From the sequence record PQ287649.1: a stretch of 64,000 nucleotides of DNA; one strand, written 5' to 3'. The DNA is from Pseudomonas phage HHBS47_1. The notes under the pieces were generated by a model, which worked only from the letters and a program-made list of their open reading frames with translations, was not told the origin of the DNA and ran no database searches. The translations under genes and the position numbers were made by a program. Below, in pieces: positions 31,158 to 31,583 of this stretch. Position 1 is the stretch's first letter, and each line of letters begins with the position of its first letter.

Positions 31158-31583
31158 ATGAATAATTACGGGTATGTGGATGTGTCCTTGGTAGGACCTG
31201 AAGTAGAGGAAATCTTTGGCTTGCTCTTGGAGTGTGGTATCGCACCGGCTGCGGAGTATAACCTGCATTGTACCCTGATGTACGATGAACAGGCAGAAGA
31301 ACCGCTGGTAAAACTGAATCCTGATGCGAAATTCACCGCCTACGTGACAGGGATTGATGTACTGGGAGATGGGTTGGTGTTTAACCTTACCAGCAAAGAC
31401 CTCGCTGATGAACACCGTAGGTTGAAAGACGGTGGATATACCCATTCCTTTGATGCCTTCTTACCGCACATGTCTGTCACCTATGACTTCGATGAATACG
31501 ACATGCTGAAAGTGAAGCAAGCGTTTGCAACCTGGGGTGGTCGACAACTCACCTTCAGTAAAGAATCGTTCGGAACCAAATAA
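31158..31583 (+). CDS. 2H phosphoesterase (LigT/Acb1-like), candidate cyclic-oligonucleotide phosphodiesterase
   Basis: 141 aa. Two H-x-(T/S)-x motifs each followed by YD: NLHCTLMYD and LPHMSVTYD, about 75 aa apart. This is the hallmark of the 2H phosphoesterase fold used by the anti-CBASS protein Acb1. Confidence 0.55.
   Translation: MNNYGYVDVSLVGPEVEEIFGLLLECGIAPAAEYNLHCTLMYDEQAEEPLVKLNPDAKFTAYVTGIDVLGDGLVFNLTSKDLADEHRRLKDGGYTHSFDAFLPHMSVTYDFDEYDMLKVKQAFATWGGRQLTFSKESFGTK

Follow-up and report, generated by a model that had tools for sequence, protein, structure and literature searches.

In the 64,000-nucleotide stretch of Pseudomonas phage HHBS47_1 analyzed here (PQ287649.1; hereafter the window), we examined a coding sequence on the plus strand at 31158..31583 (stop codon included), which encodes a 141-aa protein that is the orthologue of gp126 of Pseudomonas phage EL and securely a member of the Acb1 family of 2H phosphoesterases. 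Considering all lines of evidence, we regard it as rather probable that EL gp126 is a compact, lid-less 2H phosphodiesterase of this family that cleaves cyclic di- and trinucleotides of the type used by CBASS, an antiphage signaling system based on cyclic oligonucleotides; its substrate, chemistry and biological role are here what we infer from the analysis. At the DNA level, the window shares approximately 97.5% identity with EL (Elvirus, 211 kb), and the protein is 100% identical in amino acid sequence to EL gp126 as well as to the corresponding proteins of phiRU and MIZ-Pa99. Existing records describe EL gp126 as hypothetical (GenBank), as “RNA ligase” (RefSeq) and as “Anti-CBASS protein Acb1” (UniRef). 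The Acb1 assignment is thus not new, since the UniRef name precedes it, and its novelty is low. We found no study of EL gp126 in the literature.

Family membership was established by several independent comparisons. The protein scores 43.5 bits with the Pfam family Acb1 (PF23474), whose gathering score is 27 (E 3.5e-11), and the same model was matched by all 30 diverse relatives tested, including the Acb1 proteins of T4 and FBB1 and PDE-9 of phage BCSR5. It also matches PHROG 755 over residues 1-138 (E 1e-27), the group in which T4 57B/Acb1 is found with an E-value of 5e-68. When a clade profile built from 18 close homologues was compared with the PDB, the only chains with E<0.01 were of the Acb1 type, namely 7t26 (FBB1 Acb1, 2.4e-4) and the BCSR5 phosphodiesterase chains 9q2g (3.8e-4) and 9q2y (9e-3). 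A direct hhalign comparison with T4 Acb1 returned a probability of 87% and an E-value of 3.8e-6. The AlphaFold2 model, calculated from 42 sequences, has a pLDDT of 92.2 and a pTM of 0.84 and shows the beta-alpha-beta arrangement of the compact 2H phosphoesterase fold characteristic of Acb1; in BFVD, the nearest viral models are proteins of other jumbo phages that UniProt names Acb1. The preliminary description of this gene had read a 2H phosphoesterase from the motif pair and had proposed profile comparison and structure prediction against T4 Acb1 as a check, with a fold other than 2H counting against the idea. The PF23474 and PHROG 755 matches, the Acb1-type PDB chains, the hhalign result and the confident 2H model together bear this identification out.

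The reading frame was present as described, with an ATG start, and 17 homologues begin within 1-2 residues of the same position. Two catalytic motifs are encoded within it: H37-C-T39-L (31266..31277, plus strand), which lies in HCTLMYD (residues 37-43, 31266-31286) and aligns with H44/T46 of T4 Acb1, and H104-M-S106-V (31467..31478, plus strand), which lies in HMSVTYD (residues 104-110, 31467-31487) and aligns with H113/T115. In these alignments, HCTL of the EL protein is paired with HSTI of T4 and HTTI of FBB1. The complete HxT/HxT tetrad, H37, T39, H104 and S106, is therefore in place, with Ser instead of Thr at its last position. Two details of the earlier account were corrected, because the histidines H37 and H104 are 67 rather than about 75 residues apart, and because the YD that does accompany both motifs is separated from each HxT/Sx by one residue. 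Shuffling the protein 200,000 times produced two HxT/S motifs spaced 55-85 residues apart in 1.4% of cases and never produced the doubled HxT/SxxYD pattern. More decisively than such shuffle statistics, the conservation of the catalytic positions argues that the motif pair is real: among 175 homologues, the H37 column holds His in 173, the T39 column Thr in 172 and the H104 column His in all 175, and residue 106 is Ser in 137 and Thr in 38.

To relate further positions to the studied enzymes, we relied on MAFFT and profile alignments that link the EL protein to T4, FBB1 and PDE-9 through intermediate sequences, so that the residue equivalences given here are alignment-based rather than derived from three-dimensional superposition. 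The working parts of Acb1 comprise the tetrad H44, T46, H113 and T115 and the stacking aromatic residues Y12, W74 (in the beta-hairpin), F107 and W147 (Hobbs et al., PMC9117128). In the same enzyme, E141 reads the N6 of adenine, hence the adenosine requirement, and residues 145-152 form a flexible C-terminal lid in which W147 closes over the ligand (PMC9117128); the residue numbers of that study agree with the T4 sequence as translated. Two of the stacking positions are conserved in these alignments. Y6 (codon 31173..31175, plus strand) aligns with the base-stacking Y12, in a predicted equivalent column that is Y or F in 171 of the 175 homologues, and F98 (codon 31449..31451, plus strand) aligns with the base-stacking F107, in a putative equivalent column with Y, F or W in 167 homologues and His in 7.

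By analogy with T4 and FBB1 Acb1, H37 and H104 would serve as the acid-base pair, T39 and S106 would hold the scissile phosphate, and Y6 and F98 would stack on the nucleotide bases. The reaction would be metal-independent, with a ribose 2'-OH attacking the adjacent 3'-5' phosphodiester, so that a cyclic di- or trinucleotide would be opened, first to a 2',3'-cyclic phosphate intermediate and then to a linear product carrying a 3'-phosphate. Produced in the host cytoplasm, the protein would hold CBASS messengers (3'3'-cGAMP, cAAA and similar molecules), and possibly the cA3 of type III CRISPR systems, below the level at which abortive-infection effectors are activated; shielding of its DNA would give a nucleus-forming phage no escape from such effectors. 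Signaling defenses stay effective against nucleus-forming phages, according to a recent review (PMC13282480). For the P. aeruginosa pangenome, CBASS has been reported at a frequency of 53% (PMC12035536), with which the host side fits the proposed anti-CBASS role. The setting of the homologue in phage CBB, flanked by NAMPT and Sir2-like genes, is a further point of context in its favor. The closest solved structure, PDE-9, cleaves 3'3'-cGAMP and continues to do so, less efficiently, when its lid is removed (10.1101/2025.08.21.671373).

Several observations weigh against cleavage of CBASS messengers by EL gp126. The PF23474 match spans residues 30-121 only, and pairwise identity to the T4 and FBB1 Acb1 proteins is just 18-20%. 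At the presumed W74 column, which is aromatic in T4, FBB1 and PDE-9, the EL protein has L69, and Leu is found there in 133 of the 175 relatives. The alignment places G139 in the putative T4 E141 column, where 64 of the 175 have Glu; within the EL clade, conservation of G139 reaches at least 90%, and a conserved E136 sits three residues before it. The protein also ends 8 aa past the last-strand anchor, compared with 16-17 in T4 and FBB1, and thus has no W147 lid. The PHROG 755 coordinates agree independently with this reading of the tail lengths, the EL match stopping at profile position 145 of 156 and that of T4 extending to 155, and in the AlphaFold2 model the final strand extends as far as residue 140 of the 141. 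The likeness to Acb1 that the preliminary description had drawn in size and architecture consequently stands for size (141 vs 152 aa), but not for the C-terminal W147 lid and W74, which are not conserved, nor apparently for E141. T4 Acb1 stripped of its lid stopped triggering Panoptes, which the authors of that study read as a requirement of the lid for catalysis, and some structural groups of viral 2H enzymes cleaved none of 18 messengers, others being narrowly specific (10.1101/2025.08.21.671373). The neighboring genes belong to nucleic-acid metabolism (DNA ligase, RNase HI, DHH) and form no recognizable anti-defense island. Finally, we found no published enzyme assay of EL gp126 or of other proteins in its clade. 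EL and RisingSun are absent from the lists in the supplements of Doherty et al. (10.1101/2025.08.21.671373), and three relatives of the EL protein that are among the 75 curated phage enzymes of that study, pTD1 gp030, EJP2_129 and AH04_67, have no PDE number in its Supplementary Table 1. Since a PDE number there marks the 16 candidates picked for purification, these relatives appear not to have been assayed, and no activity data can be transferred from them to the EL clade.

The departures from T4 Acb1 have to be seen beside features that the EL clade has kept or shares with the wider family. The clade retains a helix at residues 113-122 that is lost in T4 and FBB1, and it has conserved residues of its own, W126, E136, F138 and G139, of which the last three lie in the C-terminal tail S134-K141 (SKESFGTK; 31557..31580, plus strand). 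A PDE-9-type N-terminal lid is likewise absent, with 5 residues before the first strand compared with 18. In the wider family, C-terminal tails are generally short (median 10 residues), which is consistent with the published interpretation of lids as features added late and repeatedly (10.1101/2025.08.21.671373).

The alternative that survives best, which we consider possible but unlikely, is that EL gp126 is an anti-defense 2H phosphodiesterase whose scope is unlike that of T4 Acb1, either narrow or shifted to other immune nucleotides. Such substrates might be the cyclic oligoadenylates of type III CRISPR systems, 2'-5'-linked signals or an undescribed messenger, and 2'3'-c-di-AMP, the decoy of Panoptes, might be spared. 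Core variation sets the substrates of viral 2H phosphodiesterases, some groups being narrow or inactive on the 18 messengers assayed (10.1101/2025.08.21.671373), and the EL clade appears to have no equivalents of W74, E141 and W147 while conserving its own W126, F138 and G139. Type III CRISPR signaling is moreover a known defense against nucleus-forming jumbo phages (PMC13282480). Set against this, 3'3'-cGAMP is a substrate of both PDE-9 and FBB1 Acb1, whose structures are the nearest solved ones, CBASS is the commonest signaling defense in the host species, and the sequence contains no positive pointer to another substrate. A broader form of the idea, which we put forward tentatively and hold to be rather doubtful, is that EL-type enzymes make up a natural lid-less Acb1 lineage that is widespread in jumbo phages, with a scope possibly unlike that of T4 Acb1, and that some of them are carried in virions and delivered together with the DNA. 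Such enzymes might, for example, cut CBASS or type III CRISPR signals without a need for adenine, or spare 2'3'-c-di-AMP and so avoid Panoptes.

An improbable alternative is that the protein is a ThpR/LigT-type RNA 2',3'-cyclic phosphodiesterase or an end-healing enzyme for phage RNA or nucleotide metabolism, which would repair tRNA or clear cyclic-phosphate ends alongside RNase HI, the DHH phosphoesterase and DNA ligase. Membership in the 2H superfamily, whose enzymes of this type all hydrolyze or pass through a 2',3'-cyclic phosphate, is compatible with such a role, as are the kept synteny with nucleic-acid enzymes, the RefSeq name and a match to PF13563 (2_5_RNA_ligase2) that, at 20.8 bits, falls below the cut-off of 27. 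The name was nevertheless set aside as functional evidence, because “RNA ligase” is merely the name of PHROG 755 and is applied to T4 57B/Acb1 as well. RefSeq indeed gives this PHROG 755-derived label to T4 gene 57B, the founding Acb1, and to its relatives, and the misleading name has spread across many phage records. The family models of the ThpR/LigT group also do not recognize the EL protein: a search of NCBIfam gave no match at E<=1, and hence no ThpR signal, and the Pfam search gave no match to PF02834 (LigT_PEase). At 141 aa, the protein is in addition smaller than the matched LigT/ThpR-type chains (168-184 residues).

Very improbable, finally, is a mainly virion-packaged protein whose 2H fold is vestigial or acts at injection only: CBB_118, which is 31% identical, was found in purified virions of phage CBB with 7 unique peptides and 60% coverage (PMC5259590), several homologues bear “structural protein” labels and phiKZ injects the anti-signaling protein Tad1 (PMC13282480), but the essentially invariant catalytic tetrad across the 175 homologues argues for an active enzyme, RisingSun gp120 is absent from the RisingSun mass-spectrometry table, and packaging and a CBASS-directed phosphodiesterase would not exclude each other anyway. 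The “structural protein” label of RisingSun gp120 was discarded as evidence, since it was given by homology only and gp120 was undetected by mass spectrometry. Direct proteomic support for packaging thus comes from CBB_118 only. The CBB_118 proteomics hints at enzyme packaging in some jumbo phages.

An exhaustive profile search found 798 clusters (50% identity) at E<=1e-3, mostly of proteins that stand alone and have 140-165 aa. The EL protein matches 128 records of the phage collection, and the best 60 of these 128 all come from genomes of 184-378 kb; the groups represented in these best 60 are EL-like phages, RisingSun/Joad, Rak2-like phages, pTD1-like vibriophages, Miami-like Klebsiella phages and others. 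The GC content of the gene (47.2%) is close to that of the window (49.6%), so its composition is not foreign, and a six-frame HMM search found no second 2H gene in the window. Gene order is kept in three EL-like metagenomic contigs (224-241 kb), where RNase HI is followed by DHH/DHHA1, a small ORF, the Acb1-like gene and a gene of roughly 400-520 aa, interspersed with variable small genes; an NAD-dependent DNA ligase lies upstream in the one EL-like contig whose locus extends that far. Together, the matching GC content, the distribution and the kept gene order point to vertical inheritance in the EL lineage of jumbo phages rather than to recent acquisition.

Of the two neighbors that the preliminary description had placed next to the 2H gene, both were confirmed, although the adjacency is not immediate because a 55-aa ORF (30907-31074) separates the DHH gene from it. 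RNase HI lies at 29151..29642 on the plus strand (PF00075, E 1.2e-45; PHROG 531) and the DHH/DHHA1 phosphoesterase at 29653..30906 on the plus strand (Pfam DHHA1, E 5e-8, and DHH; PHROG 4771, E 2e-97); we treat both as context only. The closest solved relatives of the DHH/DHHA1 protein by sequence are TmPDE (TM1595) and NrnA, and its N-terminal extension of about 105 residues has no family match. It is conceivable, purely as speculation, that this protein clears the products of the Acb1-like enzyme. We did not retain the DHH gene as a functional partner, because the synteny is confined to the EL lineage and the products of Acb1 have 3'-phosphate ends; NrnA/TmPDE-type enzymes prefer 5'-phosphorylated linear dinucleotides. 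This synteny is absent from RisingSun and from the Pectobacterium phage CBB, in which CBB_118 has a NAMPT gene on one side and a Sir2-like gene on the other.

The 55-aa ORF directly upstream (30907..31074, plus strand, from the ORF list) may not belong to the system. Positional counterparts of 55-67 aa, abutting or overlapping the 2H start, are nevertheless present in all three EL-like metagenomic contigs; the copies share 18-24% identity among each other, so that it is the position that is conserved, and neither Pfam nor PHROG yielded a match for the 55-aa ORF. Further upstream, a full-length NAD-dependent DNA ligase with adenylation, OB, HhH and BRCT domains is encoded at 25781-27766 (plus strand), before RNase HI and close to the beginning of the transcription unit whose last gene is the 2H gene. 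The gene that follows the 2H gene, at 31748-32962 (plus strand), is that of EL gp127, a 404-aa protein whose C-terminal part is hydrophobic and rich in Gly/Ala; the gene has its own promoter motif, and the protein only a weak PHROG match of unknown function. A 369-aa ORF at 31877-32986 overlaps it on the opposite strand and is probably spurious.

Two stable hairpins bracket the 2H gene. The upstream one (31094-31123; RNA fold -22.5 kcal/mol, z -3.4) precedes 11 consecutive T (31134-31144), and the terminator scan marks the whole element (31094..31144, plus strand) as a putative terminator-like or regulatory element before the start codon. The spacer that carries it is absent from the related EL-like contigs, where the small ORF overlaps or nearly abuts the 2H start. 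Downstream, a GC-rich hairpin with a stem of at least 12 bp and no T-run lies 10 nt past the stop codon (31593..31622, plus strand; RNA fold -30.3 kcal/mol, z -4.4). On the plus strand of the window, the motif AAACCTACATTATTC, which the EL annotation labels “putative phage promoter”, has 6 sites (24422, 31660, 33072, 34758, 40965 and 55882), compared with 0.17 expected by chance, and it appears to mark where transcription units start. The site nearest upstream of the 2H gene is that at 24422, and neither a sigma-70-like site nor a copy of the EL motif that could serve as its own promoter was found between the DHH gene and the 2H start codon. The copy at 31660..31674 (plus strand, 2 mismatches), upstream of the next gene, would mark where the transcription unit with the 2H gene ends.

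As a genome annotation, the Acb1 call is ordinary and is already contained in UniProt-derived names; the only mildly novel aspect is the minimal, lid-less architecture with base-contacting positions that appear altered. The biological setting gives the gene a wider interest. Nucleus-forming phages are shielded from DNA-targeting defenses but not from signaling and abortive-infection systems, and a 2026 review names Tad1 as the sole anti-defense protein so far described in jumbo phages (PMC13282480). If active, an Acb1-type enzyme in EL would partly explain how such phages, including therapy candidates, cope with CBASS. The EL clade further offers a test, in naturally occurring enzymes, of the published proposal that substrate choice is determined by the 2H core and that lids were added late and repeatedly.

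Among known systems, the penguinpox cGAMP phosphodiesterase (9BKQ/9CIW) differs from the EL protein in being a eukaryotic-virus protein of about 200 aa that has an N-terminal lid and targets 2'3'-cGAMP; the two share 13% identity. The ThpR/LigT enzymes and the plant Appr>p cyclic phosphodiesterase also differ, as they are larger (168-185-residue chains) and have RNA ends or Appr>p, not cyclic oligonucleotide rings, as their substrates. PDE-9 of Burkholderia phage BCSR5 (9Q2G/9Q2Y) is closer: it likewise comes from a jumbo phage (227 kb), has a helix after the second His motif and has a short C-terminal tail, whereas it differs in its N-terminal lid of about 15 residues, in having Trp where the EL protein has Leu at the W74-equivalent, and in its identity of 18-21% to the EL protein. 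With the T4 and FBB1 Acb1 enzymes (7T26/7T27), the EL protein shares PF23474, PHROG 755, the HxT/HxT(S) tetrad and the equivalents of Y12 and F107, as well as a comparable length (152 aa in the former and 141 aa in EL) and the form of a stand-alone phage protein. It departs from them in having Leu at the W74/F74 position, Gly at what appears to be the E141 position and no C-terminal lid, and in its setting, since T4 Acb1 belongs to T4-like phages and the EL protein to a jumbo, phiKZ-related Pseudomonas phage.
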